Positions 4,398-32,000 of a stretch of DNA of 32,000 nucleotides are shown in pieces. The translations under genes and the position numbers were made by a program. The notes beneath the pieces are model-generated. The model saw only the letters and a program-made list of their open reading frames with translations, ran no database searches and was not told the DNA's origin. Source of the stretch: Longivirga aurantiaca (lineage in GTDB: Bacteria > Actinomycetota > Actinomycetes > S36-B12 > CAIYMF01); contig NZ_JBHSTI010000008.1 of NCBI RefSeq assembly GCF_042660085.1, positions 2,265,604 through 2,297,603 of the forward strand, in the 5' to 3' direction. The stretch's first letter is position 1; the number at the start of each line of letters is the position of its first letter.

Positions 4398-5411
4398 CTA
4401 GACGGCGTCCGGGTGGGAGCTGGCCGGGTCCAGCCGCACCGCGCCTGCGCCGTGCCCGAGGCGTTCGCGAAGCACCGCGCGATCGCCGGTGGCCGGCTCG
4501 GTGGTCGCGAGGAAGTCGAGCAGGGCGCGGGCGAAGCGCTCCGGCTCGTCCTGGTGGGGGAAGTGCCCGGACTGCTCGAACAGCTCGAGCCGGCTGCCGG
4601 CGATCCACTCGTGCGCGGCGTACGCGTGCGACACCGGGATGAGGCCGTCCTTCGCGCCCCAGACGATCAGCGTCGGCCGCCCGGTGCTCAGGTAGAGGCG
4701 GTCACTGGCGCTGATCCGCTGGCCGCCCGGGTCGATGACGCTGCGCACGGTGTGGACGAACGCCGTGCGGGCCGGAAGGTCGGCGAGGGACGCGTAGCCG
4801 CGCGCCGCCTCGAGCACGGACGGCGACGGCCGCACGGGGGACCATCGGAGCAGGCGTCCGACCGACGCGGCGGCGACGGCGATCCGATGGTGCGCGATCA
4901 CGGGGAGCACGAGCTCCGCGCCCGGGAGCGACGCCGCGCGCAGCACCCAGCTGACCTCGCGCCCGAGCCCGCCGCTGGCGACGAGGCCGAGGCGCTCGGT
5001 GTACTCGGGGAACTGGTAGGCGAACTGCATCGCCACGCCGCCCCCCAGCGAGTGGCCGACGACCGTCGCACTCGAGTGCCCGAGCTTCTCGAGCAGATCT
5101 CGCAGCCCTGCGGCGAAGGCACCGAGCGAGTAGTCGCCCCGCGGCTTGTCAGACTCCCCGTGCCCCAGGAGATCCGGGGCGATCACGTGCGCCTCGCGCG
5201 ACAGCGCGGACATGACGGGATCCCACGTCGCGCTGCTGCTCGTGAGGCCGTGCACGAGGACCAGCACCGGAAGGTCCGGGTCGCCCGCGACCCTGTAGGC
5301 GGTGCGATGACCGTGCAGCAGGGTCTCGGTGCGCCGCACCTCGGAGCCACCGACGTCAGCCATGCCCCCACCCTGCCACCCCGGGATCGTCGATGAGACC
5401 CGGGCGGTCAC
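4398..5411 (-). CDS. alpha/beta-fold hydrolase
   Basis: Motifs present: HG oxyanion region (VLVLVHGLTSSSATW), nucleophile elbow GHSLGGG, and a C-terminal GHFPHQDEPERF histidine motif. The GTG at 5411 overlaps the upstream gene's TGA as GTGA, indicating translational coupling. The ATG at 5363 is an alternative start. Confidence 0.85.
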   Translation of the reverse strand: MTARVSSTIPGWQGGGMADVGGSEVRRTETLLHGHRTAYRVAGDPDLPVLVLVHGLTSSSATWDPVMSALSREAHVIAPDLLGHGESDKPRGDYSLGAFAAGLRDLLEKLGHSSATVVGHSLGGGVAMQFAYQFPEYTERLGLVASGGLGREVSWVLRAASLPGAELVLPVIAHHRIAVAAASVGRLLRWSPVRPSPSVLEAARGYASLADLPARTAFVHTVRSVIDPGGQRISASDRLYLSTGRPTLIVWGAKDGLIPVSHAYAAHEWIAGSRLELFEQSGHFPHQDEPERFARALLDFLATTEPATGDRAVLRERLGHGAGAVRLDPASSHPDAV

Positions 5412-7468: not shown

Positions 7469-7529
7469 CGTTGCGGCTCCTCGCTGCTCGGGGGTCGGTG
7501 CGGTGGACGGCGACGTCGAGGCTGGGCGC

Positions 7530-8627
7530 TCACACCATCGCCGCCGAGCCCACCTCGGGATGGTCCGCCATGAAGTCCAGGAGCGTGTCCGCATAGTCGG
7601 CGAACGCCGGGCACCGCACGCCCGTCCCCTGGAGGTCGCGCTCCGTGGCTGTGGTGGAGTACGTCGTACTCGAGGCGAAGTAGTCCAGGCCCTCGGCGGG
7701 GATCCCCAGGAGCCGCTCGAGACCGGGAATGCCGCCCAGCAGGGTGCGGGCGAGCCTCAGAGGCAGCGGCACCCAGACCACGCGCTTGCCCAGGTGGTGG
7801 GCGAACGTGTCGACGAGCGTGCGCACCGTGGGTGGGTGTGGGTCGGTCAACGCGTACGTGCGCCCCAGCGAGCAGTCCAGGACCGACAGCTCGTCCATCG
7901 CTCGGATCACGAAGTCGCGCGGCACCAGGGAGATGCGCACCCTGTCGGCGTCGCCGACTGCCGGCACCACAGCGATCGGACCCTGCCGCCGCAGGAAGGA
8001 CGCCAGGAAGTAAGGACCGTCGTACTTCTGGGTCGCGCCCGAGACGGAGTCGCCCACGACGATGCCCGGTCGGTAGATCGTGGCGGGGAGGCCTCCTGCC
8101 ATCGCCTTGCGCACGAGCATCTCGGCGTCGAACTTGGTCGCCTCGTAGTGATTGAGGAACGACTGGCCCTCATCGAGGGAGTCCTCGGCGAACACCCCGT
8201 CGTACCGGCCGCTCACGTAGCACGTGCTGACGTACTGGAGACGTGACAGACCGCGGAGCGCGGCGCAGACCTCGAGCACGCGGGCGGTGCCCTCCACGTT
8301 GACCCTGCGTGCCAGCTGCTCCCCGACGGTCAGGTCGTAGACGGCGGCCAGGTGCCATACCTCGCTGACGTCAGCGAGGCCTGCTCGGTCGTCCGCCCGG
8401 AGCCCGAGCCACGGCTCGGTGATGTCGCCCTCGACGACGACGACCCGGCCGGCCAGGTCCGGCTCGGACGCGACGAGCTCATCCACCCGGTGGCGGGCCG
8501 TGGTCAGATGCTGGGCCTGGACGACGCAGAGGGCGCGAGCGCCGTCGCGTCGCGCGAGCAGCCGCGGGAGCAGGGCGGAGGCCAGGAATCCCGGGAAACC
8601 GGTCACGAGGATGTCGGACATGCTCAT
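7530..8627 (-). CDS. SDR-type thioester reductase / fatty acyl-CoA reductase-like protein (NAD_binding_4 family)
   Basis: The N-terminal Rossmann motif ILVTGFPGFLAS follows directly after the ATG at 8627 (a second ATG lies at 8621). GAGAAGG lies just upstream. A YEATK catalytic Y-x3-K is present, and overall the protein resembles terminal reductase (R) domains. The ORF-track start at 8882 adds 85 Arg-rich codons and is rejected. Confidence 0.85.
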   Translation of the reverse strand: MSMSDILVTGFPGFLASALLPRLLARRDGARALCVVQAQHLTTARHRVDELVASEPDLAGRVVVVEGDITEPWLGLRADDRAGLADVSEVWHLAAVYDLTVGEQLARRVNVEGTARVLEVCAALRGLSRLQYVSTCYVSGRYDGVFAEDSLDEGQSFLNHYEATKFDAEMLVRKAMAGGLPATIYRPGIVVGDSVSGATQKYDGPYFLASFLRRQGPIAVVPAVGDADRVRISLVPRDFVIRAMDELSVLDCSLGRTYALTDPHPPTVRTLVDTFAHHLGKRVVWVPLPLRLARTLLGGIPGLERLLGIPAEGLDYFASSTTYSTTATERDLQGTGVRCPAFADYADTLLDFMADHPEVGSAAMV

Positions 8628-15045: not shown

Positions 15046-15289
15046 CGAGATCTCCTCGTCGACAGGTGAGAACGGTGCGGGCCGGGAGGGCATCCGCCTC
15101 GTGGTGACGCGCAGACCATATGTGCAGGAATCGTCGCCACGCGCTTCCGTGACCGGAACTTCTCCTGCGGTAACCCGGTCGAGGGAACGAGGGCACGCAT
15201 CGTGCGACGTCGGTCACTCCTCGTGTCTGGATGCACGCGGTGCGAGGGCGCCTCGCCTCCCATCGCCCGGCCCTCCCAGGTGGAGGGAT

Positions 15290-15301
15290 CCGCATATGCG
15301 G
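15290..15301. promoter_or_regulatory. candidate operator: perfect palindrome CCGCATATGCGG upstream of the form-II Mo-hydroxylase operon
   Basis: This 12-bp perfect palindrome lies in the 426-bp divergent intergenic region, 170 nt upstream of the small-subunit ATG. It has the same CCGCA-N2-TGCGG architecture as the sites at 22376-22387 and 25749-25760. Confidence 0.35.
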
Positions 15302-15471
15302 GGAGAACGTGGGTCGTCTGTCCGCGATTTCGTCCTACGCCTCAGCATCCGGTCAGAGGTGCGGCGAACCCGCCCTACGCCCCCGTTGACGGGGGTACTT
15401 TCCGCGGCACGGGGCGACGGCTGTCCGGGACGTCGCGCGCCCTCGCCACTCCAACCCCAGGGAGATCATCG

Positions 15472-15948
15472 ATGACCCACATCGGAGTCACCGTGGACGG
15501 GATCCTGCGGCACGGTGACGTGGAGCCTCGACGGCTCCTCGTGCACTGGCTGCGCGAGGACCTCGGCCTCGTCGGCACACCGGTCGGATGCGACACCTCG
15601 AACTGCGGTGCCTGCACCGTCCTGATCGACGGACGCAGCGCCAAGTCGTGCAGCGTGCTCGCCGTCCAGGTGGACGGCCAGAGCGTCACCACGATCCAGG
15701 GCCTCGCCGACGGCGACGAGTGGCACCCGGTGCAGAAGGCGTTCAAGGAGTGCCACGCCCTCCAGTGCGGCTTCTGCACCCCCGGCATGGTCCTGGCCTC
15801 GGTCGACCTGCTCTCGGAGAACCCGGACCCGAGCGAGGACGAGATCCGGGCCGGCCTCGAGGGCAACCTCTGCCGCTGCACCGGCTATCACAACATCGTG
15901 AAGGCGGTCGCGACCGCTGCGGCCGAGATGAAGGGGGCGTCGGCATGA
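15472..15948 (+). CDS. (2Fe-2S)-binding small subunit of a form-II CoxSLM-type molybdenum hydroxylase
   Basis: Cysteine motifs are [18 protein letters not shown] and CRCTGY. GGGAGA lies upstream of the ATG at 15472. The stop overlaps the next start as ATGA. Confidence 0.9.
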   Translation: MTHIGVTVDGILRHGDVEPRRLLVHWLREDLGLVGTPVGCDTSNCGACTVLIDGRSAKSCSVLAVQVDGQSVTTIQGLADGDEWHPVQKAFKECHALQCGFCTPGMVLASVDLLSENPDPSEDEIRAGLEGNLCRCTGYHNIVKAVATAAAEMKGASA

Positions 15949-18323
15949 CCGAGACCGTCGAGCGCACGGACGGCCCTGCGATCGGTCGTTCCGACCGGCG
16001 CAAGGAGGACGCCCGGCTCCTGACCGGCCGCACCAACTGGACCGACAACATCCAGCTGCCCGGCACGCTGCACATGGCCACGCTGCGCAGCTCGGTCGCG
16101 CACGCGAGGATCACCCGGATCGACACCAGCGCCGCCACGGCGGCAGAGGGCGTCTTCGCCGTCTACACGGGCGCGGACTTCCCCGACCTCCTCGGCACCA
16201 CCTGCGTGTGGCCGGTCACCGACGACATCAACACCGCGACGATGCCGGCGATCTGCTCGGACACGGTCAACTTCGCGGGCGACGTCGTCGCCGTCGTCCT
16301 CGCCACCGAGCAGTCGCTCGCGGTCGACGCGCTCGACCTCATCGACGTCGACTACGAGCCGCTGCCGGCAGTGGTCGACATGGAGAGCGCCCTCGCGTCC
16401 GGCTCCCCGAACGTCCACGAGGACTTCGGCACGAACCAGTGCTTCACCATGAACGTGCCCTGGGGCGACTACGCCGCGGCGAAGGCCAAGGCCGACGTCG
16501 TCGTCAGCCGCCGGTTCATCAACCAGCGCCTCATCCCGAACCCGATGGAGCCTCGCTCGGTCGTCGCTGCGCCGATGGGGATGAGCGACGAGATCACCAT
16601 CTGGTCCTCGACCCAGATCCCCCACGTGCTTCGGGTCCTGCTGGCGCTGCTGACGGGCATCCCGGAGAACAACATCCGCGTCGTCGCACCCGACGTCGGC
16701 GGCGGCTTCGGCGCCAAGCTGCAGATCAACCGCGAGGAGGTGCTGTCGATCGTCCTGGCCAAGAAGCTGGGTCGCCCGGTCAAGTGGACCGAAGGTCGCA
16801 GCGAGCACTTCGTGTCGACGCACCACGGCCGCGACCAGATCCAGGACATCGAGATCGCCGCGACCAGCGACGGCACCATCCTGGGGCTGAAGGTCGACCT
16901 CAAGGCCGACATGGGCGCCTACCTGCAGATCATCACGCCCGGCACGCCGCTCCTCGGCATGTTCATGTACTCGGGCATCTACAAGATGGACGCGCTCGAC
17001 TTCACCTGCACCGGCGTCTACACCAACAAGACGCCGACCGACGCCTACCGCGGCGCCGGACGCCCGGAGGCGACGTACGCCATCGAGCGCATCGTCGACG
17101 AGCTCGCGAACGAGCTCGGCATGGAGCCGCTCGAGCTGCGCAAGAAGAACTGGATCAAGCACGAGGAGTTCCCCTACACGCAGATCGCGGGCCTCACGTA
17201 CGACACGGGCAACTACGAGGCCGCGACCGCGCGCGCGGTGGAGCTCTTCGGGTACGACGAGCTCCGCGCCGAGCAGGCCGCACGCCGCGCGAGCGGCGAC
17301 AAGGTTCAGCTCGGCATCGGCATCTCGACGTTCACCGAGATGTGCGGCCTCGCGCCGTCCCGCACCCTGGGCGCGCTCAAGTACGCCGCAGGCGGATGGG
17401 AGCACTGCACGATCCGTGTGACGCCGACCGGCAAGGTGGAGCTCGTCACCGGCACGTCGCCGCACGGGCAGGGCCACGAGACTGCGTGGAGCCAGATCGC
17501 CAGCGACATCATCGGCATCCCTGTCGAGGACATCGAGGTCGTGCACGGCGACACCGGCAGGGCGCCGTACGGCATGGACACGTACGGCTCGCGCTCGCTG
17601 GCCGTCGGTGGCCAGGCCATCAAGGCGGCTGGCGAGAGGGTCGTGGAGAAGGCACGGGTCATGGCCGCGCACCAGCTCGAGGTGAGCCCGGACGACATCG
17701 AGTTCAGCAACGGCACGTTCTCGGTGAAGGGCGACCCTGAGAAGAGCACGACCATCCAGGCCGTCGCGTGGGCCGCGTTCGCGGCGCACAACATCCCCGA
17801 CGGCATGGAGCCGATGCTGTCCGGCGAGTCGACCGTCGACCCGCAGGACTTCTCCTACCCCCACGGCACGCACCTCGCGGCCATGGAGGTCGACACGGAG
17901 ACCGGCATGGTCACGCTGCGCAAGTACGTCGCCGTCGACGACTGCGGCGTGCAGATCAACCCGCTCATCGTCGAGGGCCAGGTGCACGGCGGACTCGCCC
18001 AGGGCATCGCCCAGGCGATGTACGAGGGTGCCCTCTACGACGCTGACGGCAACCTGCTGACCGGGTCGATGGGCGACTACCTCCTTCCGAGCGCGGCCGA
18101 CCTGCCGTCGTTCATCACCGATCGGACGATCACTCCGTCCACGACACATCCCTTGGGGACCAAGGGGATCGGCGAGGCCGGCGCGATCGCGTCGACCCCG
18201 GCGATCATCAACGGCGTGGTCGACGCGCTGCGCCCCCTCGGCGTCAACGACGTCTTCATGCCCGCCAGCCCGCAGAACGTGTGGCGCGCCATCCAGGCGG
18301 CGCAGAACGGAGGTGCCGCATGA
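15945..18323 (+). CDS. molybdopterin-binding large subunit, form-II CoxL-like (xanthine dehydrogenase family)
   Basis: 792 aa. The active-site loop reads AYRGAGR (nt 17043-17063), which is the published form-II signature rather than the CODH signature AYXCSFR. ATGA overlaps occur at both ends (15945-15948 and 18320-18323). Confidence 0.9.
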   Translation: MTETVERTDGPAIGRSDRRKEDARLLTGRTNWTDNIQLPGTLHMATLRSSVAHARITRIDTSAATAAEGVFAVYTGADFPDLLGTTCVWPVTDDINTATMPAICSDTVNFAGDVVAVVLATEQSLAVDALDLIDVDYEPLPAVVDMESALASGSPNVHEDFGTNQCFTMNVPWGDYAAAKAKADVVVSRRFINQRLIPNPMEPRSVVAAPMGMSDEITIWSSTQIPHVLRVLLALLTGIPENNIRVVAPDVGGGFGAKLQINREEVLSIVLAKKLGRPVKWTEGRSEHFVSTHHGRDQIQDIEIAATSDGTILGLKVDLKADMGAYLQIITPGTPLLGMFMYSGIYKMDALDFTCTGVYTNKTPTDAYRGAGRPEATYAIERIVDELANELGMEPLELRKKNWIKHEEFPYTQIAGLTYDTGNYEAATARAVELFGYDELRAEQAARRASGDKVQLGIGISTFTEMCGLAPSRTLGALKYAAGGWEHCTIRVTPTGKVELVTGTSPHGQGHETAWSQIASDIIGIPVEDIEVVHGDTGRAPYGMDTYGSRSLAVGGQAIKAAGERVVEKARVMAAHQLEVSPDDIEFSNGTFSVKGDPEKSTTIQAVAWAAFAAHNIPDGMEPMLSGESTVDPQDFSYPHGTHLAAMEVDTETGMVTLRKYVAVDDCGVQINPLIVEGQVHGGLAQGIAQAMYEGALYDADGNLLTGSMGDYLLPSAADLPSFITDRTITPSTTHPLGTKGIGEAGAIASTPAIINGVVDALRPLGVNDVFMPASPQNVWRAIQAAQNGGAA

Positions 18324-19174
18324 TCCCCTCGGCGTTCGACTACGTGAAGGCGTCCACGGTCGACGAGGCCGTCGCGGCTCTCGCCGAGGCAGGCGAGGAC
18401 GCGAAGGTGCTCGGCGGCGGCCAGTCGCTGCTGCCGGTGCTGCGCCTGCGTCTCAACGCACCGACCGTGCTCGTCGATGTCAGCGGCGTCGGCGAGATGC
18501 GGAGCATCTCGGACGAGGGCGGCTCGCTGCTCATCGGTGCGGCGGTCACGACGTACGAGGTCCTGCACGACGCGGCGGTCAACGCCTCGGTGCCCCTGCT
18601 GTCGCAGACCGCGGGGCTCGTGGCCGACCCGGCCATCCGTCACCGCGGGACCTTCGGCGGCTCGTGCACCCACGCCGACCCGGCAGGCGACCTGCCCACG
18701 GTGGCGCGGGCGCTCGACGCCGAGTTCGTGATCGCGGGGCCGGGCGGCCGTCGCACGGTGGCGGCGGCGGACTTCTTCGTCGACTACTTCACCACGGCCG
18801 TGGGACCGGACGAGGTCCTCGTGGCCGTCCGCGTGCCGAAGCTCGACGGGTGGGGCAGCCACTACGAGAAGTTCCACCGCACCGCGCAGGCGTGGGCCAT
18901 CGTCGGTGTCGCAGCGGCGGTGAAGGTCGAGGGCGGCAGCATCACCGGCGCCCGCGTCGCGCTCACCAACGTCGGACCGACGCCGGTGCGCGCTGCCTCG
19001 GTCGAGGCGGCCCTCATCGGAGGCCCTGCCACCGTCGAGGCGATCACTGCCGCCGCGCAGAGCGCGGCCGACGGCACGTCGCCCACCAGCGACACCCACG
19101 CCGCGGCCGACTTCCGCACCCACCTGGCGAAGGTCCTCACGGGCCGAGCCGTCGCCAAGGCCGCGGGCCTCTAG
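18320..19174 (+). CDS. FAD-binding medium subunit (CoxM-like) of the form-II enzyme
   Basis: The start MIPSAFDYVKASTVDEAVAAL is followed by the GGGQSLLPVLRLRL FAD-binding motif and RHRGTFGGS. GGAGG lies upstream of the ATG at 18320. Confidence 0.9.
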   Translation: MIPSAFDYVKASTVDEAVAALAEAGEDAKVLGGGQSLLPVLRLRLNAPTVLVDVSGVGEMRSISDEGGSLLIGAAVTTYEVLHDAAVNASVPLLSQTAGLVADPAIRHRGTFGGSCTHADPAGDLPTVARALDAEFVIAGPGGRRTVAAADFFVDYFTTAVGPDEVLVAVRVPKLDGWGSHYEKFHRTAQAWAIVGVAAAVKVEGGSITGARVALTNVGPTPVRAASVEAALIGGPATVEAITAAAQSAADGTSPTSDTHAAADFRTHLAKVLTGRAVAKAAGL

Positions 19175-19188
19175 CGCTCCACCAGCCC

Positions 19189-19230
19189 CAGCAGAACGGC
19201 CCCCGTCGCACGACGGGGGCCGTTCTGCTG
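19189..19230. terminator. bidirectional hairpin terminator between convergent genes
   Basis: CAGCAGAACGGCCCCCGTCG..CGACGGGGGCCGTTCTGCTG is a near-perfect 19-20 bp stem followed by TT. It sits between the medium-subunit stop (19174) and the modC stop (19246). Confidence 0.7.
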
Positions 19231-19245
19231 TTCCTCGAGGGTCGG

Positions 19246-20307
19246 TCAGGCGGGGTAGACGTCGAGCTCGGTGGCCTTGGCCGAGAGCCACAGCTCGGTG
19301 CCGCGCGTGAGCCGGAGGTCGGCCACCGCCCCCGGTGTGACGTCGACGATGACCGTCGGGGCGCCGCTGACGGTGACGCGGACGCGGTCGCCGATGGGCT
19401 CGACGCCGTCGACGACACCGCGCCACACGTTGCGCGCGCTGCCCTCCGGCTCGGCGGCGTGCAGGCTGATCGCGCTGGGTCGTACGGCGACCAGCACGTG
19501 GCCGTGGTGATCGGCGTCGTCCGCCACGTGCAGCGCGCCGCCGCCGTCCAGGGCGACCTCCCCGCCCGCGGCCGTGCCGGGCAGCAGGTTGATGCCGAGC
19601 AGCCGTGCGACGTAGCGCGTCGCCGGGCGCCTGGCCACCTCCCACGGCTCCCCCTGCTGCGTGACCGAGCCGCCCTCCAGCACCACGATCCGGTCCGCCA
19701 GGACGAGGGCGTCGAGCGGGTCGTGCGTGACCAGCAGCGTGGGACCCCCGACGTCGGTCAGGTGCTCGCGCAACCAGGAGCGGACGTCGAGCCGCGTGCC
19801 GGCGTCGAGCGCCGCGAGCGGTTCGTCGAGCAGCATCGCCACCGGGTCGGCCGCGAGCGCACGACCGAGCGCCACCCGCTGTGCCTGCCCGCCCGACAGC
19901 GTCGCCGGCTTGCGGTGCGCGAGGTCGTCGAGCCCGAGCCTCGTCACCCACACCCCCGCGCGCCGCCGGGATTCGGCCTTGGACACGCCGGACGAGCGCA
20001 GCCCGAAGGCGAGGTTGTCGAGCACCGAGAGGTGAGGGAAGAGCCGATAATCCTGGAACACCAGGCCGATCCGGCGCTCCCCCGGTGCGACGAGCACGTC
20101 GGCCGCGGGATGGTCCACGACCACGGTGCCGAGCGACAGCCGCCCGCCGGTCATCGGCGTGAGCCCGGCGACCGCGCGCAGCAGGGTCGACTTCCCGGCA
20201 CCGTTCGGGCCGAGCACCGCCACCACCTCGCCGGCAGCCACCTCGATCTCGACGTCGAGGCGGAAGGCCCCCTGCTCGACGACGACCTGGCCCGACAGCC
20301 CGCTCAT
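19246..20307 (-). CDS. modC: molybdate ABC transporter ATP-binding protein
   Basis: Walker A is GPNGAGKST, the signature is LSGGQAQRVALGRAL and Walker B is LLDEPLAALD. A C-terminal TOBE/Mop-like domain is present. The ATG at 20307 overlaps the modB stop as ATGA. It lies in an operon with modA and modB. Confidence 0.9.
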   Translation of the reverse strand: MSGLSGQVVVEQGAFRLDVEIEVAAGEVVAVLGPNGAGKSTLLRAVAGLTPMTGGRLSLGTVVVDHPAADVLVAPGERRIGLVFQDYRLFPHLSVLDNLAFGLRSSGVSKAESRRRAGVWVTRLGLDDLAHRKPATLSGGQAQRVALGRALAADPVAMLLDEPLAALDAGTRLDVRSWLREHLTDVGGPTLLVTHDPLDALVLADRIVVLEGGSVTQQGEPWEVARRPATRYVARLLGINLLPGTAAGGEVALDGGGALHVADDADHHGHVLVAVRPSAISLHAAEPEGSARNVWRGVVDGVEPIGDRVRVTVSGAPTVIVDVTPGAVADLRLTRGTELWLSAKATELDVYPA

Positions 20308-21116
20308 GCCGATGCCCCGGTCCCCAGCCACCGGTCGCGGAGCCCCACGAGCACGAGCACCGAGACCGCGAGCAGCACGAGGCTCAGCACGACCGCCTCG
20401 GAAGGGTCGCCCTCGAGACCGGTGTAGACGGCGAGCGGCAGCGTCTGCGTCACGCCCTCGAGGTTGCCGGCGAAGGTGATGGTCGCTCCGAACTCGCCCA
20501 GTGCGCGGGCGAAGGTCAGCACCGCACCCGCGACGAGCGACGGCGCCACGAGCGGCACGGTGACCCGGCGGAACACCTCGACGCGGCTCGCGCCCAGGGT
20601 GACCGCAGCCTCCTCGAGCTTCCCGTCCAGGCCGCGCAGCGCCCCCTCGACCGTGATGACGAGGAACGGCATGGCCACGAACACCTGCGCAACGACCACC
20701 CCCGGCGTGGTGAACGGCAGCGTGATCCCGGTGAGTGCTTCGAGCGGCTGACCGACGATGCCCCGGCGCCCGAACGCCAGGAGCAGTGCGATGCCGCCCA
20801 CGACGGGCGGGAGCACGAGCGGCACCGTGACGAGCGCGCGCAGGAAGCGGCGGCCCGGGACTGTCGAGCGCGCGAGCAGCCAGGCCAGCGGTACGCCGAG
20901 CAGCACGGCCACGACGGTCGAGGCCAGCCCGGTCACGAGCGAGAGCCGCAGCGCCGCCAGCGACGTCGGCGAGGTGAGCACCTCCCAGAACCGGCTCCAG
21001 GGCGCGCGGACGAGCAGCCCGAGCAGGGGCAGCGCGAGGAACAGGATGGCGAGCCCGGCGGGCACGAGGACGGGCCAGGGGGGTGCGGTCGCCGACCGCC
21101 CGCGGCGGGCGGTCAC
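20304..21116 (-). CDS. modB: molybdate ABC transporter permease
   Basis: 270 aa and polytopic. An EAA-like loop is present (EEAAVTLGASRVEVFRRVTVPL). The GTG at 21116 overlaps the modA stop as GTGA. The ORF-track version (510 aa) reads through the modA region in another frame and is rejected. Confidence 0.9.
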   Translation of the reverse strand: MTARRGRSATAPPWPVLVPAGLAILFLALPLLGLLVRAPWSRFWEVLTSPTSLAALRLSLVTGLASTVVAVLLGVPLAWLLARSTVPGRRFLRALVTVPLVLPPVVGGIALLLAFGRRGIVGQPLEALTGITLPFTTPGVVVAQVFVAMPFLVITVEGALRGLDGKLEEAAVTLGASRVEVFRRVTVPLVAPSLVAGAVLTFARALGEFGATITFAGNLEGVTQTLPLAVYTGLEGDPSEAVVLSLVLLAVSVLVLVGLRDRWLGTGASA

Positions 21117-21889
21117 GGGGCGCCGAACCCGGCGTCGGCGAGCACCTTCTGCGCCTCGGGGCCCAGCAGGTATGCCGCGAACGCCTGTGCTGTCACGGGA
21201 TTCGCGCTGCCCGACATCGCGGCGATCGGGTAGCTCGTCGTCACGTTCTGGTCGACGGGGATGTCGATGCCGACGACGGCGCTGCCCGCGGCCTTCACGT
21301 CGGTCACGTAGACGATGCCTGCGTCGACCTCGCCGAGCTGCACCTTGGAGAGCACCGACTTCACGTCGACCTCGCGCGTCACGGGCGTCACCGTGAGGTT
21401 GTTCTGCTCGAAGAGCTTGTCGGCCGCGATGCCGCACGGCACGTCGGCCGCGCACACGGCGACCTTCACCGCGGGGTCGGCGAGGTCCGCCAGCGAGGTG
21501 ACTGTCGTGATCGGGTCGGCCGGGGCAGCGATGGCCATCGTGTTGACGGCGAACACCGTCGAGCCGGGCGCGAGCCCGGCGTCGACCACGGTGTCCATCG
21601 TCTTCTGGCTCGCGCTGGCGAACACGTCGGCAGGCGCCTTCTCGGCGATCTGGGTCGCGAGTCCGCTGCTCGGCCCGAAGCTGAACGTGATCGTCGTTCC
21701 CGGGTTCGCCGCCTCGAACTGCTCGCCGATCGTCACGAACGCCTCCTTCAGCGAGGCTGCGGCGAACACGGTGATCGGTCCTGTCACGCCGGTCGCCGAG
21801 CCGGACGGCGCTTCTCCAGCAGCGGTCGAGCCGCATCCGGCCACAGCGAGCGTCGCGGCTGCGAGGGCTACGAGCAGGCGCGTGCGCAC
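21113..21889 (-). CDS. modA: molybdate ABC transporter substrate-binding lipoprotein
   Basis: A lipobox is present (LAVAGC). The motif ITVFAAASLKEAF...FSFGPSSGLATQI...ADVFASAS is typical of ModA. GTG start at 21889 with GAAGGG upstream. Confidence 0.9.
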   Translation of the reverse strand: MRTRLLVALAAATLAVAGCGSTAAGEAPSGSATGVTGPITVFAAASLKEAFVTIGEQFEAANPGTTITFSFGPSSGLATQIAEKAPADVFASASQKTMDTVVDAGLAPGSTVFAVNTMAIAAPADPITTVTSLADLADPAVKVAVCAADVPCGIAADKLFEQNNLTVTPVTREVDVKSVLSKVQLGEVDAGIVYVTDVKAAGSAVVGIDIPVDQNVTTSYPIAAMSGSANPVTAQAFAAYLLGPEAQKVLADAGFGAP

Positions 21890-21920
21890 GGTGCGCCCTT
21901 CGTCGTCCGCGGGGTGCGCA

Positions 21921-22328
21921 TCAGCGGTGGTCGGGGATCTCGATGCCGACGTTGGTGGACTTCACGGTGGCGACCGCGAGGACTCCGGGCTCGAGACCGA
22001 GCTCGTCGGCGGCCTCGCGGCTCATGAGCGACACCATCCGGTGCGGGCCCACCTGCAGCTCGACCTGCGCCATCACCGTGTCGCGCACGACGCGGGTGAC
22101 GATGCCCGTCAGCCGGTTGCGGGCCGAGGCGCTCACCACCGGGCTCTCGAGCGCGGGATCGTCGACCGCCCGCTCGGCCATGAACCGCGCCACCTCGGTG
22201 CCGTCCACCACGGCACGTCCGACGTCGTCGGTCGCCGTGGCGAGGCGCCCCGAGTCGGCCCAGCGCCGCACCGTGTCGTCGCTGACGTGCAGGAGGCTCG
22301 CCACTTCGCTGATCCGCAGCTTCGTCAT
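21921..22328 (-). CDS. molybdate-responsive regulator candidate: N-terminal excisionase/MerR-type HTH plus C-terminal Mop/TOBE domain
   Basis: Start is the ATG at 22328. The HTH is MTKLRISEVASLLHVSDDTVRRWADSGRL. The C-terminal segment SARNRLTGIVTRVVRDTVMAQVELQVGPHRMVSLMSREAADELGLEPGVLAVATVKSTNVGIE matches the molbindin/TOBE pattern. It ends 31 nt upstream of modA. Confidence 0.8.
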   Translation of the reverse strand: MTKLRISEVASLLHVSDDTVRRWADSGRLATATDDVGRAVVDGTEVARFMAERAVDDPALESPVVSASARNRLTGIVTRVVRDTVMAQVELQVGPHRMVSLMSREAADELGLEPGVLAVATVKSTNVGIEIPDHR

Positions 22329-22374
22329 GCGGGCGAGGGTACGGCTCAGATGCGGATCACGCATCCATTTCTGG

Positions 22375-22388
22375 TCCGCACGTGCGGA
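22375..22388. promoter_or_regulatory. candidate operator: perfect 14-bp palindrome TCCGCACGTGCGGA upstream of the mop-regulator-modABC operon
   Basis: It lies 46 nt upstream of the regulator ATG (22328) in an 85-bp intergenic gap. A further GATCCGCA half-site (minus strand, 22351-22358) lies inside the imperfect palindrome GATGCG-gatca-CGCATC. Confidence 0.4.
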
Positions 22389-22413
22389 TTGTGACCCGTC
22401 ATGCTTCCGCAGG

Positions 22414-22956
22414 TCACGCAGGCCGCTCGTCGAGGTCCTCGCCCGACGCGACGTCGCCCACCTCCACGAGGGCGACGTCGTGCGCCGCGAGGTAGGCCCG
22501 TGCACCGCGGTCGCCGTCGGCCGCGTCGCGCACGCCCGGCCAGTGCCCCCGCCCGAGCAGCACCGGGTGCCCCCGCTCGCCGGCGTACGCCGCCTGGGCG
22601 AGATCGGAGCCGCTGTCGACGAGCCGTCGCACGGCCTCGGGGCTGAGCCCCGGGAGGTCGACGAGGGTGACCACGACCCGATCGGCCTCGGTGCCCACCA
22701 GCGTGTCCAGGCCGAGCCGCAGCGACGAGCCCATGCCGCTCGCCCAGTCGGCGTTCACGACCGTGATGTCGGCGTCGTCCACGCGGCCCACCCAGGCACC
22801 GAGCACGACGACGACGGGCTCGCACTCGGCGTCGCGCAGCAGATGCACCGCACGGTCGACCAGCCGCTCGCCGTCCAGCACGTACGGCGCCTTCGGACCG
22901 CCGAAGCGCCGTCCCTCACCGGCAGCGAGCACGAGCCCCGCGGTGCTCCCGCTCAA
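22414..22956 (-). CDS. mocA: MobA-like nucleotidyltransferase, probable molybdenum cofactor cytidylyltransferase (MocA-type)
   Basis: The N-terminal motif is GLVLAAGEGRRFGGPK, followed by VVVTLVDLPGLSPEAV. The apparent TTG start at 22956 overlaps the xdhC stop as TTGA. The role is inferred from context with xdhC and MCD-dependent enzymes. Confidence 0.75.
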   Translation of the reverse strand: MSGSTAGLVLAAGEGRRFGGPKAPYVLDGERLVDRAVHLLRDAECEPVVVVLGAWVGRVDDADITVVNADWASGMGSSLRLGLDTLVGTEADRVVVTLVDLPGLSPEAVRRLVDSGSDLAQAAYAGERGHPVLLGRGHWPGVRDAADGDRGARAYLAAHDVALVEVGDVASGEDLDERPA

Positions 22957-24059
22957 CGCGGAGCGCCGGCGTGGATCGGCCCGTCGGACTGCGCCAGATT
23001 CTTGCCTGAGCCGCCCCAGCGGTGCTGCACGATCTCGGCGGCGATCGAGATCGCTGTCTCCTCAGGGGTTCTCGCGCCGAGGTCCAGGCCGATCGGCGAC
23101 TGGATCCGGGCGATCTCAGCGTCGGTGAGCCCGGCCTCCTTCAACCGGATCGTGCGGTCCTCGTGGGTGCGGCGCGACCCCATCGCCCCGATGTAGGCGG
23201 CGCGGGTGGCGACGGCCTCCTTCAGCGCCGGCACGTCGAACTTCGGGTCGTGCGTCAGCACGCAGATCACCGCGCGGGAGTCGACCTGCTGCGAGGCCAG
23301 CCAGCGGTGCGGCCAGTCCACGACGACCTCGTCGGCGTCCGGGAACCGCTTCCTGGTCGCGAACACCTCGCGCGCGTCGACGATCGTGACGTGGAAGCCC
23401 AGCAGCTTGCCCGCCCTGCTCAGTGCCGCGGAGAAGTCGACCGCGCCGAAGATCGCCATCCGCGGCGCCGGCGCGAACGACGCCACGAACACCTCCAGGC
23501 CCTCGCCGAGCCGCTCGCCCTCGGGGCCGTACCTCAGGAACCCCGTCGAGCCGGACTCGAGCATCCCGAGCACGTCGGATCCCACGGTGTCGTCCAGGCG
23601 CGAGGTGCCGAGCGATCCTTCGATCCCGTTCTCCCGCACCACGATGTGGCGCCCCACGTGATCGGGACCCTTCACCACCGTGGCGACCGCGACGTGCTCG
23701 CCCGCGTCGATCGACGCCGCGATACCGGGCAGCTCCGGCCAGGTCTGCTCGTCGACCTTCTCGACGAACACCTCCAGGATCCCGCCGCAGGTGAGCCCGA
23801 CCGTGAACGCGTCACCGTCGCTGATGCCATACGTCTCGTAGCGCGCGACGCCGTCCTCGAGCACCTCGGTGCCCAGGGTGTAGAGCGCGCCCTCGACGCA
23901 GCCGCCGCTCACCGAGCCGACCGCCTCGCCTGCGGCGGTCACGAGCATCGACGCACCGGCAGGACGCGGCGCCGAACGCCACGTGCGGACCACGGTGGCC
24001 ATCGCCACCGGCTCGCCGCGATCGACGGCGGCCATCAGTGCGGGCAGGACCTCGCGCAC
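22953..24059 (-). CDS. xdhC: XdhC/CoxI-family molybdenum cofactor insertion chaperone
   Basis: The N-terminal domain reads RGEPVAMATVVRTWRSAPRPAGASMLVTAAGEAVGSVSGGCVEGAL. The XdhC_C Rossmann-like part reads MAIFGAVDFSAAL...VLTHDPKFD...YIGAMGSRRT. The GTG at 24059 is preceded by GAGGAG with a 5-nt spacer. The 81 upstream codons of the ORF-track version are rejected. Confidence 0.85.
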   Translation of the reverse strand: MREVLPALMAAVDRGEPVAMATVVRTWRSAPRPAGASMLVTAAGEAVGSVSGGCVEGALYTLGTEVLEDGVARYETYGISDGDAFTVGLTCGGILEVFVEKVDEQTWPELPGIAASIDAGEHVAVATVVKGPDHVGRHIVVRENGIEGSLGTSRLDDTVGSDVLGMLESGSTGFLRYGPEGERLGEGLEVFVASFAPAPRMAIFGAVDFSAALSRAGKLLGFHVTIVDAREVFATRKRFPDADEVVVDWPHRWLASQQVDSRAVICVLTHDPKFDVPALKEAVATRAAYIGAMGSRRTHEDRTIRLKEAGLTDAEIARIQSPIGLDLGARTPEETAISIAAEIVQHRWGGSGKNLAQSDGPIHAGAPR

Positions 24060-24138
24060 GGCATCTCCTCGGGGTGTCCCACTGGGGTGAGGGCACGACG
24101 GACCCGGCCGGACGCAGCGCGCGTGCCCGTCGTCGTCC

Positions 24139-24573
24139 ATGATGACCCGCATGGCAAGAGTCCTGCTCGCCGACGTCGTGACCGAGCCCATCCACGTGCG
24201 CGACGTGGCCGCCCTCGTGGCCGGGCCCGAGGCCGGCGCCGTCGTCACCTTCTCCGGCGACGTCCGCGACCACGACCACGGCAGGTCGGTCGCGACGCTC
24301 ACCTACGAGGGCCACCCGACCGCCGCCTCGGTGCTCGCCGAGTGCGCCGCCGAGATCGCCGCCAGGCACCCCGTGGTCGCCGTCGCGGCCCTGCACCGCG
24401 TCGGGCCCATCGCCATCGGTGAGGCGGCGCTGGTCGCCGCGGTCAGCAGCGCCCATCGCGCCGAGGCGTTCGCCGCCTGCGCCGAGCTCGTCGACGTCAT
24501 CAAGGAGCGCCTGCCCGTGTGGAAGCACCAGGTCTTCACCGACGGCACCGACGAATGGGTCAACTGCGCCTGA
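24139..24573 (+). CDS. moaE: molybdopterin synthase catalytic subunit
   Basis: 144 aa with typical MoaE motifs: GAVVTFSGDVRDHD, LTYEGHP, HRVGPIAIGEAALVAAVSSAHRAEAF and KERLPVWKHQVF. It is divergent from xdhC. Confidence 0.9.
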   Translation: MMTRMARVLLADVVTEPIHVRDVAALVAGPEAGAVVTFSGDVRDHDHGRSVATLTYEGHPTAASVLAECAAEIAARHPVVAVAALHRVGPIAIGEAALVAAVSSAHRAEAFAACAELVDVIKERLPVWKHQVFTDGTDEWVNCA

Positions 24574-25760: not shown

Positions 25761-25920
25761 GTCCTCGTGGGAGATGCAGCCGCTTCTGCCCCAGTCAGGT
25801 CTGGGCAACCTCAGGACCTGCACCGTCAGGGTGCGGGGATGCCGACCCCGTCCTACCCTCAGCCCACCGCGTGACCGCCGTCACAGACCCGTGCTCGTCA
25901 GCGCCTTCCCAGGAGTGTTC

Positions 25921-26586
25921 GTGGAGCTTCAGAACTCGTTCGTCGTACCCGCCGATATGGACACCGCCTGGAAGACGCTGCAGGACGTCGAGTTCCTCGC
26001 CCCCTGCGTCCCCGGCGCGACGCTCACCAAGAGCGACGGCGAGAACTTCGAGGGCAACGTCAAGGTCAAGCTCGGCCCGGTCTCGATGACGTACGGCGGC
26101 ACCGCGCGGTTCGTCAGCCGCGACGAGGCGACCCACACCGCCGTGATCGAGGGCACGGGCAAGGAGACCAAGGGCACCGGCACCGCCAAGGGGCTCGTCA
26201 CCGCCGTGCTCGTCGCCGAGGCGCCGGACCGCACCCGCTGCGACGTCGTCAGCGAGCTGACCATCACCGGCAAGGCCGCGCAGTTCGGCCGCGGCGTCAT
26301 GCAGGACGTCGCCGGCCGCATCATCGACCAGTTCTCGGCCAACCTCGCCGCGCAGATGACCGCTGCCGGCGCCGGTGCCGTCGCGGCGGCTGCCGCTGCG
26401 GACGGCGGCGGCACCGAGGCGGCCGCTGCTGCCCCGCGCGCAACCACTCCTCCCCCGCGTCCTGCCTCGGAGGAGGCCATCGACCTGCTCGGCACTGCGG
26501 GCGCGCCGGTGCTCAAGCGGGCCATCCCCATCGTGATCGGCGCCGTTGTGGTCATCGGCCTGATCATCTGGCTCGTCAAGAAGTAG
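25921..26586 (+). CDS. coxG: CoxG-family SRPBCC protein with Ala/Pro-rich linker and C-terminal TM anchor
   Basis: The GTG at 25921 is preceded by AGGAG with a 5-nt spacer. The CoxG-like core reads VPADMDTAWKTLQDVEFLAPCVPGA...VKVKLGPVSMTYGG...ITGKAAQFGRGVMQDVAGRIIDQF. The protein ends in AIPIVIGAVVVIGLIIWLVKK. Confidence 0.85.
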   Translation: MELQNSFVVPADMDTAWKTLQDVEFLAPCVPGATLTKSDGENFEGNVKVKLGPVSMTYGGTARFVSRDEATHTAVIEGTGKETKGTGTAKGLVTAVLVAEAPDRTRCDVVSELTITGKAAQFGRGVMQDVAGRIIDQFSANLAAQMTAAGAGAVAAAAAADGGGTEAAAAAPRATTPPPRPASEEAIDLLGTAGAPVLKRAIPIVIGAVVVIGLIIWLVKK

Positions 26587-26708: not shown

Positions 26709-27578
26709 ATGCAGACCCCAGCCCCCGTCGACTACGCGAAGGCCACCTCGGTGGCCCATGCGATCGAGCTGCTCGAGCAGTTCGGTGAGGACGCCCGGCC
26801 GGTAGCAGGCGGACACAGCCTGCTGCCGATGATGAAGCTGCGGCTCGCAGCGCCGGAGGCACTCGTCGACCTCAACGACATCCCGGAGCTCACGGGCATC
26901 CGGATCGAGGGTGACGAGATCGTGGTGGGGGCCATGACCCGGCACCGCGACATCCTCGCCTCGGCGATCCTCGCCGAGCACTACCCGATCTTCCGCGAGG
27001 CCGAGCACCTCATCGCCGACCCGGTCGTGCGCAACCGCGGCACCATCGGCGGCTCCGCGTGCCAGGCCGACCCGGCCGCGGACCTGTCGGCCGTCGGCTC
27101 GGCGCTGCGCGGCACCGCCGTCGTGCAGGGCTCCGGCGGCCGGCGCACCGTGCCGCTGCGCGAGTTCCACGAGGGCCCGTACGACACCGTCATCCAGCCT
27201 GGCGAGGTGCTCGTCGAGCTCCGCTACCCGATCCGTCCGGGCGCGGGCAGCGCGTACGAGAAGGTCGAGCGCCGCGCAGGCGACTGGGGCGTCGCCACCG
27301 CGGGCGTGTTCGTCGTCGTACGCGACGGCGTCGTGACCGACTGCGGCATCGGCAACGCGGCCGTGGGCGCCGAGCACTACTGCTCGCCCGCCGCCGAGGC
27401 TGCGCTCATCGGTCAGCCGGCCACGGAGGAGAGCTTCGCCGCCGCCGCCAAGGTCGTCGGCGAGACCTGCGAGCCGTACGCCGACCAGCGGGGACCGGTC
27501 GACTACAAGCGCCACCTCGCCACCGAGCTGACCCTCCGCGCGCTGCGCCGCGCCGCCCGAGCCTCCCAGGGAGCATGA
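26709..27578 (+). CDS. coxM: form-I carbon monoxide dehydrogenase medium (FAD) subunit
   Basis: Motifs are [14 protein letters not shown] and [16 protein letters not shown] lies upstream of the ATG at 26709. It is first in the M-S-L order, and its stop overlaps the coxS start as ATGA. Confidence 0.9.
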
Positions 27579-28062
27579 CCATGCAGGTGACGATCACCGT
27601 CAACGGCGTCGAGCAGACGCGTGACATCGAGCCGCGCATGCTGCTCGTGCACTTCATCCGCGACGAGCTGCAGATGCGCGGCACCCACTGGGGCTGCGAC
27701 ACCTCCAACTGCGGCGCCTGCACCCTGTGGATCGACGACGAGCCCGTCAAGAGCTGCACGCAGCTCGCGGTGATGGCCGACGGCAAGTCGATCACCACGG
27801 TCGAGGGCCTCGCCAAGGGCGGCGAGCTCGACCCGATCCAGAAGGGCTTCATGGAGTGCCACGGCCTCCAGTGCGGCTACTGCACCCCCGGGATGATGAT
27901 GGTCGGGCGCGCGCTGCTCGACGAGAACCCGCACCCGACCGAGGCCGAGATCCGCGAGGGCATCAGCGGCAACATCTGCCGCTGCACCGGCTACAAGAAC
28001 ATCGTCGCGGCGATCCAGTGGGCCGCCGAGAACCCCGCCACGACCGACGCCGAGGTGACCGC

Positions 28063-28066
<4 letters not shown>
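27575..28066 (+). CDS. coxS: form-I carbon monoxide dehydrogenase small (2x[2Fe-2S]) subunit
   Basis: Cysteine motifs are [18 protein letters not shown] and CRCTGY. ATGA overlaps occur with coxM (27575-27578) and coxL (28063-28066). Confidence 0.9.
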
Positions 28067-30462
<2,396 letters not shown>

Positions 30463-30471
30463 GAGCACCAC

Positions 30472-31410
30472 GTGATGACCACGCGGGCACTGGACGAGAG
30501 GGCCGAGTCCCTGCGCGCCCACAGGGTGCCGTTCGTCCATGCCCGCGTGGTCCTCGCCGAACGACCCACCTCGGCGAAGCCCGGCGACGAGGCGGTGATC
30601 ACCCCTGACGGCGTCATCGAGGGTTTCGTCGGCGGTCAGTGCGCCGAAGGGACGGTGCGCACGCAGGCCCTGTCGCTGCTGTCGTCGGGCGACTCCATGC
30701 TGCTGCGCATCACGCCCAACCCCGAGGGCGAGCAGTCGGGCAAGACCGTGGTGCACAACGCCTGCCTGTCGGGAGGCACGCTCGAGATCTTCCTCGAGCC
30801 CGTCCTGCCGCTGCCGCTCGTCGCCGTGCTCGGCGACAGCCCGATCGCCCGTGCGATGACCGGGGTCGCCGAGGCGCTCGGCTACGAGGTCTCGACGTAC
30901 GACGACGCCGACCTCTCGGCCACCGACGCCGTGGTCGTCGCCACCCACGGCAAGCGCGAGGAGAAGACGCTGCAGGACGCCGTGCTCGCGGGCGTTCCGT
31001 ACGTCGGGCTCGTCGCGAGCCCCAAGCGCGGCGCCGCGGTCGTCGAGTCGCTCGAGCTCACCGACGAGCAGCGCGCACGCATCCACTACCCCGCCGGGCT
31101 CGACATCGGCGCGCGCACACCCCAGGAGATCGCGCTCTCGGTCTTCGCCCAGATGGTCTCCGAGCGTCCGCGCGTGCCGCGCACCGCACATGCCGGCACC
31201 CACCCGCCGGTCACGGAGCCGCCCGTGACGCGGCTCGGCGTGATCTCGCTGGAGACCGAGACCGCGATCGACCCGGTCTGCGACATGACGGTGACGATCT
31301 CGCCGGACGCCCTGCACGCCGATCTCCCGGACGGCGAGCGCGTGTGGTTCTGCTGCCCCGGGTGCCGTCGCGAGTTCCTGAAGCACCCCGAGAAGTACCC
31401 TCGATCGTGA
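30472..31410 (+). CDS. XdhC/CoxI-family protein fused to a C-terminal YHS (TRASH-like) metal-binding domain
   Basis: The GTG at 30472 lies 6 nt after TAGGAG. The XdhC_CoxI N-domain reads PFVHARVVLAERPTSAKPGDEAVITPDGVIEGFVGGQCAEG. The XdhC_C part reads LVAVLGDSPIARAM...VVATHGKREE...YVGLVASPKRG. A Pro/Thr linker follows. The YHS pattern is DPVCDMTV...VWFCCPGCRREFLKHPEKY (about nt 31270-31401). Confidence 0.85.
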   Translation: MMTTRALDERAESLRAHRVPFVHARVVLAERPTSAKPGDEAVITPDGVIEGFVGGQCAEGTVRTQALSLLSSGDSMLLRITPNPEGEQSGKTVVHNACLSGGTLEIFLEPVLPLPLVAVLGDSPIARAMTGVAEALGYEVSTYDDADLSATDAVVVATHGKREEKTLQDAVLAGVPYVGLVASPKRGAAVVESLELTDEQRARIHYPAGLDIGARTPQEIALSVFAQMVSERPRVPRTAHAGTHPPVTEPPVTRLGVISLETETAIDPVCDMTVTISPDALHADLPDGERVWFCCPGCRREFLKHPEKYPRS

Positions 31411-32000
31411 CCGTCGACGACCTCGTCCCCGACATCGGGACGCTGACCGCGCGCCTCGCCGACGCGGGCTACCTCTCCGACCCCAGCCTCGCGGCCGCGC
31501 TCTTCTGCGCCGTACGGCTCCCCCAGCCGCTGCTGCTCGAGGGCGAGGCCGGCGTCGGCAAGACCCAGGCTGCGAAGTCGCTCGCCGAGCTGCTCGACAC
31601 CCCGCTGCTGCGGCTGCAGTGCTTCGAGGGCATCGATGCCGCCGAGGCGCTCTACGAGTGGAACTACCCGCGGCAGCTCCTCGGCATCCGCCTCGCGGAG
31701 GCGCAGGGCGCGGACCTCGTCGAGGAGACGCTGTTCGGCGAGAAGTACCTCGTCCGCCGTCCCCTCATGCAGGCGCTCGAGCACCCCGGTCCCCGTCCGG
31801 CCGTCCTGCTGATCGACGAGGTCGACCGCGCCGACGAGGAGTTCGAGGCGTTCCTGTTCGAGCTGCTCGCGGAGTCGACCGTGACGATCCCCGAGCTCGG
31901 CACGATCCGCGCGACCCATCCGCCGATCGTGATCCTCACCTCGAACCGCACCCGCGACCTGCACGACGCCCTCAAGCGCCGCTGCCTGTACCACTGGATC
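31407..32000 (+). CDS. coxD: MoxR-type AAA+ ATPase, CoxD-like (3' end lies outside the window)
   Basis: The GTG at 31407 overlaps the upstream TGA as GTGA. My own translation gives Walker A LLLEGEAGVGKTQ, Walker B VLLIDEVDRADEEF and sensor-like ILTSNRTRDLHDALKRRC. The frame stays open to the window end. It is absent from the ORF track because it has no stop codon in the window. Confidence 0.85.
   Translation, partial: MTVDDLVPDIGTLTARLADAGYLSDPSLAAALFCAVRLPQPLLLEGEAGVGKTQAAKSLAELLDTPLLRLQCFEGIDAAEALYEWNYPRQLLGIRLAEAQGADLVEETLFGEKYLVRRPLMQALEHPGPRPAVLLIDEVDRADEEFEAFLFELLAESTVTIPELGTIRATHPPIVILTSNRTRDLHDALKRRCLYHWI

Follow-up and report, generated by a model that had tools for sequence, protein, structure and literature searches.

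The 32,000-nucleotide stretch of Longivirga aurantiaca DNA considered here (contig NZ_JBHSTI010000008.1, positions 2,265,604 to 2,297,603; hereafter the window) carries near its 3' end the entire gene of a CoxF-type maturation factor of form-I (Mo-Cu) aerobic carbon monoxide dehydrogenase (CODH), whose product ends in a YHS/TRASH-type domain. The open reading frame (ORF) occupies positions 30472..31410 of the plus strand, runs from a GTG start to a TGA stop and encodes 312 residues; its naming as coxF follows from the score against a reference CoxF and from its placement in the CoxF clade. The G+C content at third codon positions (GC3) amounts to 0.94 for the core, 0.87 for the linker and 0.90 for the YHS part (window G+C 72%), and the codon-position GC agrees with a coding frame over the full length. 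Nine nucleotides separate it from the end of coxL, the TAG stop codon of which lies at 30460-30462. An AGGAG ribosome-binding site, read from the sequence at 30461..30465 (+), overlaps this stop codon and precedes the GTG at 30472 by 6 nt. At the other end, the TGA at 31408-31410 overlaps the coxD start codon GTG at 31407, giving the string GTGA. The first-pass annotation of this DNA had placed the gene directly after coxL and coupled it to coxD through GTGA, and both features are seen in the sequence.

The order of the operon is coxG-M-S-L-F-D-E, with coxF coupled to both coxL and coxD. Its genes within the window are all encoded on the plus strand: coxG, of the SRPBCC/CoxG type (25795..26586; Pfam COXG, 65.4 bits); coxM, for the FAD-binding medium subunit (26709..27578; FAD_binding_5 and CO_deh_flav_C); coxS, for the small subunit with two [2Fe-2S] clusters (27575..28066; Fer2_2 and Fer2); coxL, for the form-I large subunit (28063..30462; MoCoBD_1/2 and Ald_Xan_dh_C); and, behind coxF, coxD, for a MoxR-type AAA+ ATPase (31407..32000, AAA_5), which runs past the window. 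The AYACSFR loop at residue 374 of CoxL is the form-I (Mo-Cu) signature. Beyond the window, coxD is completed and followed by a gene for a von Willebrand factor A (VWA) protein (coxE) and by a convergent gene. No further coxF candidate was found in this continuation of the operon, and no other CoxF in the genome (96% complete).

CoxF and CoxI are both XdhC homologues, and CoxF groups with the XdhC homologues of other CODH operons (PMC2997495). A search of plasmid sequences matched the window protein to the gene following coxE, i.e. CoxF, in pHCG3 of Afipia (Oligotropha) carboxidovorans, which bears the NCBI name 'XdhC family protein'. The match reaches 92 bits (E 2e-26, residues 12-232) against 32 bits for CoxI, while the second XdhC-family protein of the window (22953-24059) scores nearly equally with the two, at 69 and 70 bits. 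In a maximum-likelihood tree built on the XdhC core, with the tails removed, the CoxF proteins form a clade of 77 rows, apart from generic XdhC/CoxI (Shimodaira-Hasegawa-like approximate likelihood ratio test, SH-aLRT, 99), and the window protein groups there with other actinomycete copies. It thus has the XdhC_CoxI and XdhC_C core, resembles the reference CoxF more than CoxI or generic XdhC, and lies inside the CoxF clade; its gene shares a cluster with a form-I coxL (AYXCSFR), a MoxR-type coxD and a VWA-type coxE. Because of the 92 versus 32 bits, the clade membership and the lack of another CoxF in the genome, the gene is identified as encoding the CoxF-type accessory protein of form-I aerobic CODH.

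The comparison with the 280-residue CoxF of O. carboxidovorans OM5 (pHCG3) shows the same XdhC_CoxI and XdhC_C core (33% identity across it), the same setting beside coxD and coxE in a form-I cox cluster, a common clade and both conserved cysteines, including the one in the suspected 'MCPSHGTM' site. Unlike the window protein, CoxF of O. carboxidovorans has neither linker nor YHS domain, and the gene order is L-D-E-F there versus L-F-D-E in the window. With the generic XdhC/CoxI/PaoD-type chaperones of the molybdenum cofactor (Moco), the window protein has in common the two-domain fold and the conserved Cys pair; those chaperones, unlike it, form a separate clade, across a branch with SH-aLRT 99, and are often paired with mocA. 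The first-pass annotation had taken the window protein for a Moco-delivering XdhC, apart from the copper step attributed to CoxD/E/F. This view is not supported: CoxF itself belongs to the XdhC family and the window protein is its counterpart.

A role of CoxF as a copper escort has been proposed from the motifs M107CPSHGTM, RGD and R266HGQRQS of the O. carboxidovorans protein (PMC4240915). The window protein lacks these published motifs (MCPSHGTM, RGD and RHGXRXP). The counterpart of MCPSHGTM is ACLSGGTL, in which C98 aligns with the site suspected in Oligotropha and only the Cys, Ser and Gly are conserved in the alignment. RGD and the phytase-like RHGXRXP are absent and, in the CoxF alignment, confined to Oligotropha and a close relative. 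Since they are missing from other aligned CoxF proteins too, these two motifs do not define the CoxF family.

The product is composed of four parts. The N-terminal XdhC_CoxI domain (residues 15-80, 30514..30711 (+); Pfam 53.8 bits, above cut-off) holds C57, which is invariant in both alignments (the six-phylum CoxF alignment A1, and A3). It is followed by the Rossmann-like XdhC_C domain (residues 118-228, 30823..31155 (+); 80.8 bits, above cut-off; Foldseek 2WE8 and 3ON5), by a Pro/Thr-rich disordered linker (residues 233-262, 31168..31257 (+), RPRVPRTAHAGTHPPVTEPPVTRLGVISLETET) and by the YHS/TRASH domain (residues 263-310, 31258..31401 (+)), with D267, C270, C294, C295 and C298, assigned from a sub-cut-off Pfam match and from the residues that are invariant in relatives. 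Linkers across the family measure 11-49 residues (median 23) and are rich in Ala, Pro and Glu, without conservation of sequence. The Pro/Thr-rich character of the linker had been noted in the first-pass annotation, and its disorder is indicated by the AlphaFold2 model, with a predicted local distance difference test (pLDDT) below 50 at residues 239-261. Of the Pfam matches that the annotation implied, those to XdhC_CoxI and XdhC_C stand, while that to YHS (PF04945) stays under the gathering score in the window copy.

The YHS match covers residues 266-309 with 22.6 bits (E 1.1e-4), below the Pfam gathering score of 30.3, and excision of the tail raises it to 28.2 bits (E 2e-6), also below the cut-off; a weaker TRASH match is found as well. 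By Pfam's own standard, therefore, the window tail would not count as a certified YHS domain. At the level of the family the assignment is secure, because all 63 sampled homologous tails match PF04945 (E <= 0.01; best E 2.9e-19) and the proposed ligand residues are invariant in relatives; the earlier designation of the module as YHS/TRASH is upheld on this basis. The TRASH model is matched by 48 of the 63 tails, and zf-FCS, the MYM-type zinc finger, by 16. Among 76 relatives of 60-95% identity, D267, C270, M272, F293, C294, C298 and P306 are invariant, and the spacing Cys-x22-Cys-x3-Cys is kept in 215 of 226 homologous tails. The window tail counts as an instance of the ligand pattern Asp + Cys-x(19-22)-Cys-x3-Cys and reads D267, then C270-x23-C294-x3-C298, with one residue more than the family mode of x22. 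C295, the second Cys in FCC, is characteristic of close relatives only; more distant members have Gly, Ser or Ala at this position, so that Asp and three Cys are conserved family-wide and the lineage of the window has four Cys. These residues would form the putative thiolate metal site of the YHS/TRASH domain. The low Pfam score and the one-residue insertion are what a decaying, functionless remnant might display; the proposed ligand residues are, however, all intact, the GC3 of the tail is 0.90, and relatives with as little as 60% identity retain the same residues without exception, which makes decay in this genome hardly credible.

The AlphaFold2 model, computed from 76 sequences, has a mean pLDDT of 84.8, with values mostly of 87-95 in the core (residues 1-238). 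The tail (residues 262-310, pLDDT 75-87) is predicted as four short strands and a helix, as in zinc-ribbon/TRASH folds. The predicted template modelling score of 0.66 leaves the relative placement of the domains uninformative. With the whole model as query, Foldseek returned XdhC-fold structures only (2WE7/2WE8, the Mycobacterium smegmatis homologue of Rv0376c, and 3ON5) and is silent on the tail. The solved sequences nearest to the tail profile are the YHS-like region of phenol hydroxylase PhN (2INP, E 2.4e-7) and ribosomal L24e; the Cys region of PhN and L24e are taken here to be structural zinc sites. The likeness to the C-terminal Cys region of PhN (PDB 2INP, 2INN, 3U52) covers the FC-x3-C half of the tail, and that region lies within a subunit of a di-iron monooxygenase, without a link to copper delivery. 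The YHS/TRASH domains of copper ATPases, archaeal copper regulators and the adenylyl cyclase of Mycobacterium phlei have DPVCGM...FC-x3-C with one Asp and three Cys, as the CoxF tails do; unlike these proteins, CoxF carries the domain fused to an enzyme-maturation factor, and its near relatives have an additional Cys (FCCxxC).

The main rival to a copper function arises from these likenesses: the tail could be a structural zinc ribbon, a docking module that holds CoxF on CoxL, CoxE or CoxD without any copper. The Cys-rich region of PhN and the zinc ribbons of L24e as nearest solved sequences, the zf-FCS matches in 16 of 63 tails and the four Cys of the window lineage, which suit tetrahedral Zn, are consistent with it. 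Only the Asp and three Cys are conserved throughout the family, however, and many members have Gly, Ser or Ala in place of the fourth Cys. Further evidence bearing on this alternative comes from the distribution of the tail.

Within Actinomycetota, 401 species genomes were sampled, and form-I coxL was called at >=57% identity to the coxL of the window. It is present in 88 of them, 86 by identity together with G170, where it is split over contigs, and G287, where it is decayed. A CoxF-like gene that reaches into the YHS tail accompanies it in 79 of the 88 genomes, a count that is descriptive and overstates the number of independent events, as related genomes are not independent. A CoxF-like match lies downstream of coxL on the same strand in 79 genomes, usually as the next gene, the two alignments being a median of 43 nt apart. 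G243 and G256 have clear YHS-less copies, and in the three genomes without a CoxF-like match the match to coxL breaks off at a contig end or close to one. The XdhC-YHS fusion was found in none of the eight Actinomycetota genomes in which the sole large subunit is form-II-like (<=47% identity), nor in any sampled Actinomycetota genome without form-I coxL, where only weak partial matches to the XdhC_C region occur. Two apparent cases of CoxF-YHS without form-I coxL were rejected: G170 has a contig break, with the 3' end of coxL at C47:1-273, and G287 has frameshifted, decaying coxL and coxF, with coxL in three overlapping pieces containing an internal TGA and coxF-YHS in two pieces (G287:C5:286072-289355). 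G269 had been listed as YHS-less and was likewise rejected, since its tail lies in the same frame behind a longer linker.

The same association extends over a much wider range. A scan based on the CoxL alignment yielded 80 loci from about 20 phyla, among them Chloroflexota, Acidobacteriota, Bacteroidota, Gemmatimonadota, Myxococcota, Verrucomicrobiota, Dormiibacterota, Eremiobacterota, Bacillota, Pseudomonadota, Actinomycetota, Halobacteria, Thermoplasmatota and Nitrososphaerota; AY[RA]CSFR is present in 76. A CoxF-like ORF with an in-frame YHS domain was found in 64 of the 80 form-I loci and one without YHS in five (one of them cut by a contig end), while 11 loci have no CoxF-like ORF, mostly because the contig stops close to it. 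The same form-I loci contain 24 CoxI/XdhC-like ORFs, all of them without a YHS domain; generic XdhC elsewhere was not searched specifically. Full-length matches on plasmids come from six records (Thermomicrobium roseum, Deinococcus sp. AJ005, Paraburkholderia aromaticivorans, two Caballeronia and Natronorubrum bangense), and in all six the coxF-YHS gene lies inside a form-I cluster. In Paraburkholderia and Caballeronia, the YHS-tailed gene occupies the CoxF position after coxE. Thermogemmatispora carboxidivorans, a Streptomyces and an Arthrobacter are further carriers of a YHS-type CoxF. Close homologues are numerous (375 representative clusters at 50% clustering with E <= 1e-30, the window protein being one of thousands); most are tagged PF04945 in precomputed annotation, under names such as 'XdhC family protein' or 'xanthine dehydrogenase accessory factor' only. 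The YHS tail is accordingly linked near-exclusively to the CoxF genes of form-I clusters across many phyla. The tie to the Cu-containing form-I CODH suggested by the first-pass annotation is retained, as an equal occurrence beside non-Cu Mo enzymes was not seen in the samples searched. The architecture is not unusual: CoxF with a YHS tail is the prevailing form in the sampled loci.

Several loci deserve separate mention. On the Thermomicrobium roseum megaplasmid (L006), coxM-S-L-F(YHS) is followed by acnA, with no coxD or coxE within 9 kb; the AAA+/VWA pair is either encoded elsewhere or not needed. A Verrucomicrobiae metagenome-assembled genome (MAG; L066 15143-17041) and Saccharospirillum impatiens (L102 15225-17741) have paired adjacent CoxF-like genes, one with YHS and one without. 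Tandem YHS pairs occur in a Chloroflexia MAG (L047 12478-13635) and in two actinobacterial genomes (L029, L031), with a 'C.EACKTEY' remnant before the last tail. Outside Alphaproteobacteria, YHS-less CoxF was seen at L083 13780-14613, L028 (G256), L026 (G243), L042 (Nonomuraea) and L096 (Phytohabitans). Two of these copies have short thiol- or His-rich ends (…KSCCDTK and …EACHGHR) that may be minimal substitutes for the domain. In Rhizobium jaguaris, a tblastn match that seemed to reach query residue 300 proved spurious, the ORF being of 278 residues and YHS-less.

On the core tree, the 69 YHS-bearing rows are all united in a single clade (75 rows, support 99). CoxF of O. carboxidovorans and an alphaproteobacterial MAG copy nest in a proteobacterial subclade (support 96), the YHS-bearing members of which are from Saccharospirillum, Dyella, Actimicrobium and Paraburkholderia. 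The YHS-less copies of the Verrucomicrobiae MAG and Saccharospirillum impatiens form a small clade that is sister to all other CoxF. The presence and absence of YHS needs six changes on this tree, and one gain with about five losses would account for them. The most plausible reading is that the tail was already part of ancestral CoxF and disappeared from the lineage in which CoxF has been studied; the loss in O. carboxidovorans is suggested by the nesting of its CoxF within the YHS-bearing clade.

These distributions bear on the zinc-ribbon docking module in both directions. That the domain is dispensable in several lineages would suit it, whereas tandem duplication and repeated loss without loss of the gene look more like the behaviour of accessory metal-binding domains, and the tail occurs only on the paralogue genetically linked to Cu insertion (PMC4240915). 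Taken together, a purely structural zinc site is unlikely.

The most likely task of the YHS tail is to capture the Cu(I) that goes into the Mo-S-Cu site. The CODH made by coxE and coxF mutants of O. carboxidovorans lacks Cu, and in that species the Mo-Cu cluster matures inside the already folded enzyme (PMC4240915). In the adenylyl cyclase of M. phlei, the YHS domain confers a Cu2+-specific activation, with one Asp and three Cys as proposed ligands (PMC4626032). The identity of the metal as copper and its transfer to CoxL are inferred from the genetic role of Oligotropha CoxF, the Cu-specific response of the tested YHS domain and the tandem tails in relatives, which recall the repeated metal-binding domains of copper pumps. 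The XdhC-fold core (residues 1-232) bears the small YHS/TRASH domain on a flexible tether of about 30 residues. In the proposed mechanism, the tethered domain would take up cytoplasmic Cu(I) and pass it to folded CoxL at its sulfurated Mo site, either directly or through the conserved core residues C57 and C98. CoxD and CoxE would help in this step, and its product would be Mo-S-Cu-S(Cys) on the AYACSFR loop. A CoxF-type factor of this kind, with the YHS tail as a tethered metal site and hand-over of Cu(I) to CoxL, is considered reasonably probable. The more far-reaching proposition, in which the tethered domain is the physiological Cu(I) donor for the Mo-S-Cu site, ancestral in CoxF and lost in the only organism studied, stands at even chances.

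Several observations speak against copper delivery by the tail. Both Pfam scores of the window copy lie below the gathering cut-off, the model does not inform on domain placement, the nearest solved relatives are presumed zinc sites, and the relatedness of the sampled genomes inflates the counts. Moreover, the domain is dispensable in Alphaproteobacteria, including O. carboxidovorans, in some mycobacterium-like genomes, in Nonomuraea and in Phytohabitans. On plasmid p380k of Deinococcus sp. AJ005 (L007 7983-9041), the CoxF tail has lost two conserved Cys, reading SPVDGE for DPVCGM and YFTCANC for YFCCxGC, so that a C-x2-C pair remains.

Two other readings, a copper sensor and a dual chaperone, are less likely. 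As a sensor, the tail would switch on the CoxF core or CoxD/E only when Cu is available, without donating the metal. Such a role is in line with the only biochemically tested YHS domain found, which is the Cu2+-specific activator of its fused enzyme (PMC4626032). CoxF, though, has no known catalytic activity to regulate, and its disordered linker of variable length (11-49 residues) differs from the 8 residues of the cyclase (PMC4626032), a swinging arm fitting better than allosteric coupling; sensing is therefore quite improbable. As a dual chaperone, a Moco-binding XdhC protein with a Cu domain would deliver both the molybdenum cofactor and copper, a proposal of the first-pass annotation with which the retention of both family-wide Cys in the XdhC-fold core agrees. 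The CoxF clade is, however, apart from generic XdhC/CoxI, and the window has a separate xdhC-mocA pair. The double hand-over is very improbable because the cluster of O. carboxidovorans matures in the folded enzyme and the coxF mutant has a CODH without Cu (PMC4240915).

Under the reading of CoxF as a Cu(I) donor, the molybdopterin-cytosine-dinucleotide cofactor would be handled by this separate xdhC-mocA pair. Its xdhC (22953..24059, minus strand; XdhC_CoxI twice, XdhC_C) is real, has no YHS domain, as the first-pass annotation had noted, and lies outside the CoxF clade. It overlaps the downstream mocA-like gene of a MobA-family nucleotidyltransferase (22414..22956, minus strand; NTP_transf_3, 110.7 bits). 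The division of labour with this second xdhC, also suggested there, is plausible, given the mocA overlap and the grouping with generic XdhC/CoxI on the tree. Both genes belong to a molybdenum island (window positions 15202-24573) just upstream of the form-I cox operon. The island holds a form-II CODH-like cluster of the order S-L-M, with the large-subunit motif AYRGAGR, and also modC-modB-modA on the minus strand, followed by mocA, overlapped by the generic xdhC, and by moaE. Only two XdhC-family genes and one YHS-like domain are present in the genome as a whole (3.67 Mb, 96% complete). Elsewhere in the window, a 728-residue ORF at 5408-7594 (minus strand) with good coding statistics and weak NAD-binding Pfam matches near its C-terminus sits between an alpha/beta hydrolase and a 'male sterility'-type reductase.

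Aerobic CODH drives the oxidation of atmospheric CO by soil and aquatic microbes, and the present finding bears on the route by which copper reaches its buried Mo-S-Cu centre. CoxF as such is known; its YHS domain is visible in precomputed Pfam annotation, though not discussed in the CoxF literature found. A literature search, which did not cover subscription-only papers, returned no paper linking YHS or TRASH with CoxF, XdhC or CODH, in agreement with the earlier statement that no experimental work on the XdhC-YHS architecture is known. The sole existing model of Cu insertion rests on short, non-conserved motifs of the CoxF of one alphaproteobacterium. A recognisable Cys metal-binding domain is carried by most CoxF proteins, bacterial and archaeal, which offers a concrete, mutable site to test, and YHS-type CoxF suggests better model organisms than Oligotropha. 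In terms of annotation, an 'XdhC family protein' adjoining a form-I coxL can be named CoxF. If the proposal is true, the published Oligotropha model, with its phytate and RGD-integrin contacts, would be a derived special case; the general pathway could be reconstituted with a YHS-type CoxF, and this may open the heterologous production of active Mo-Cu CODH.

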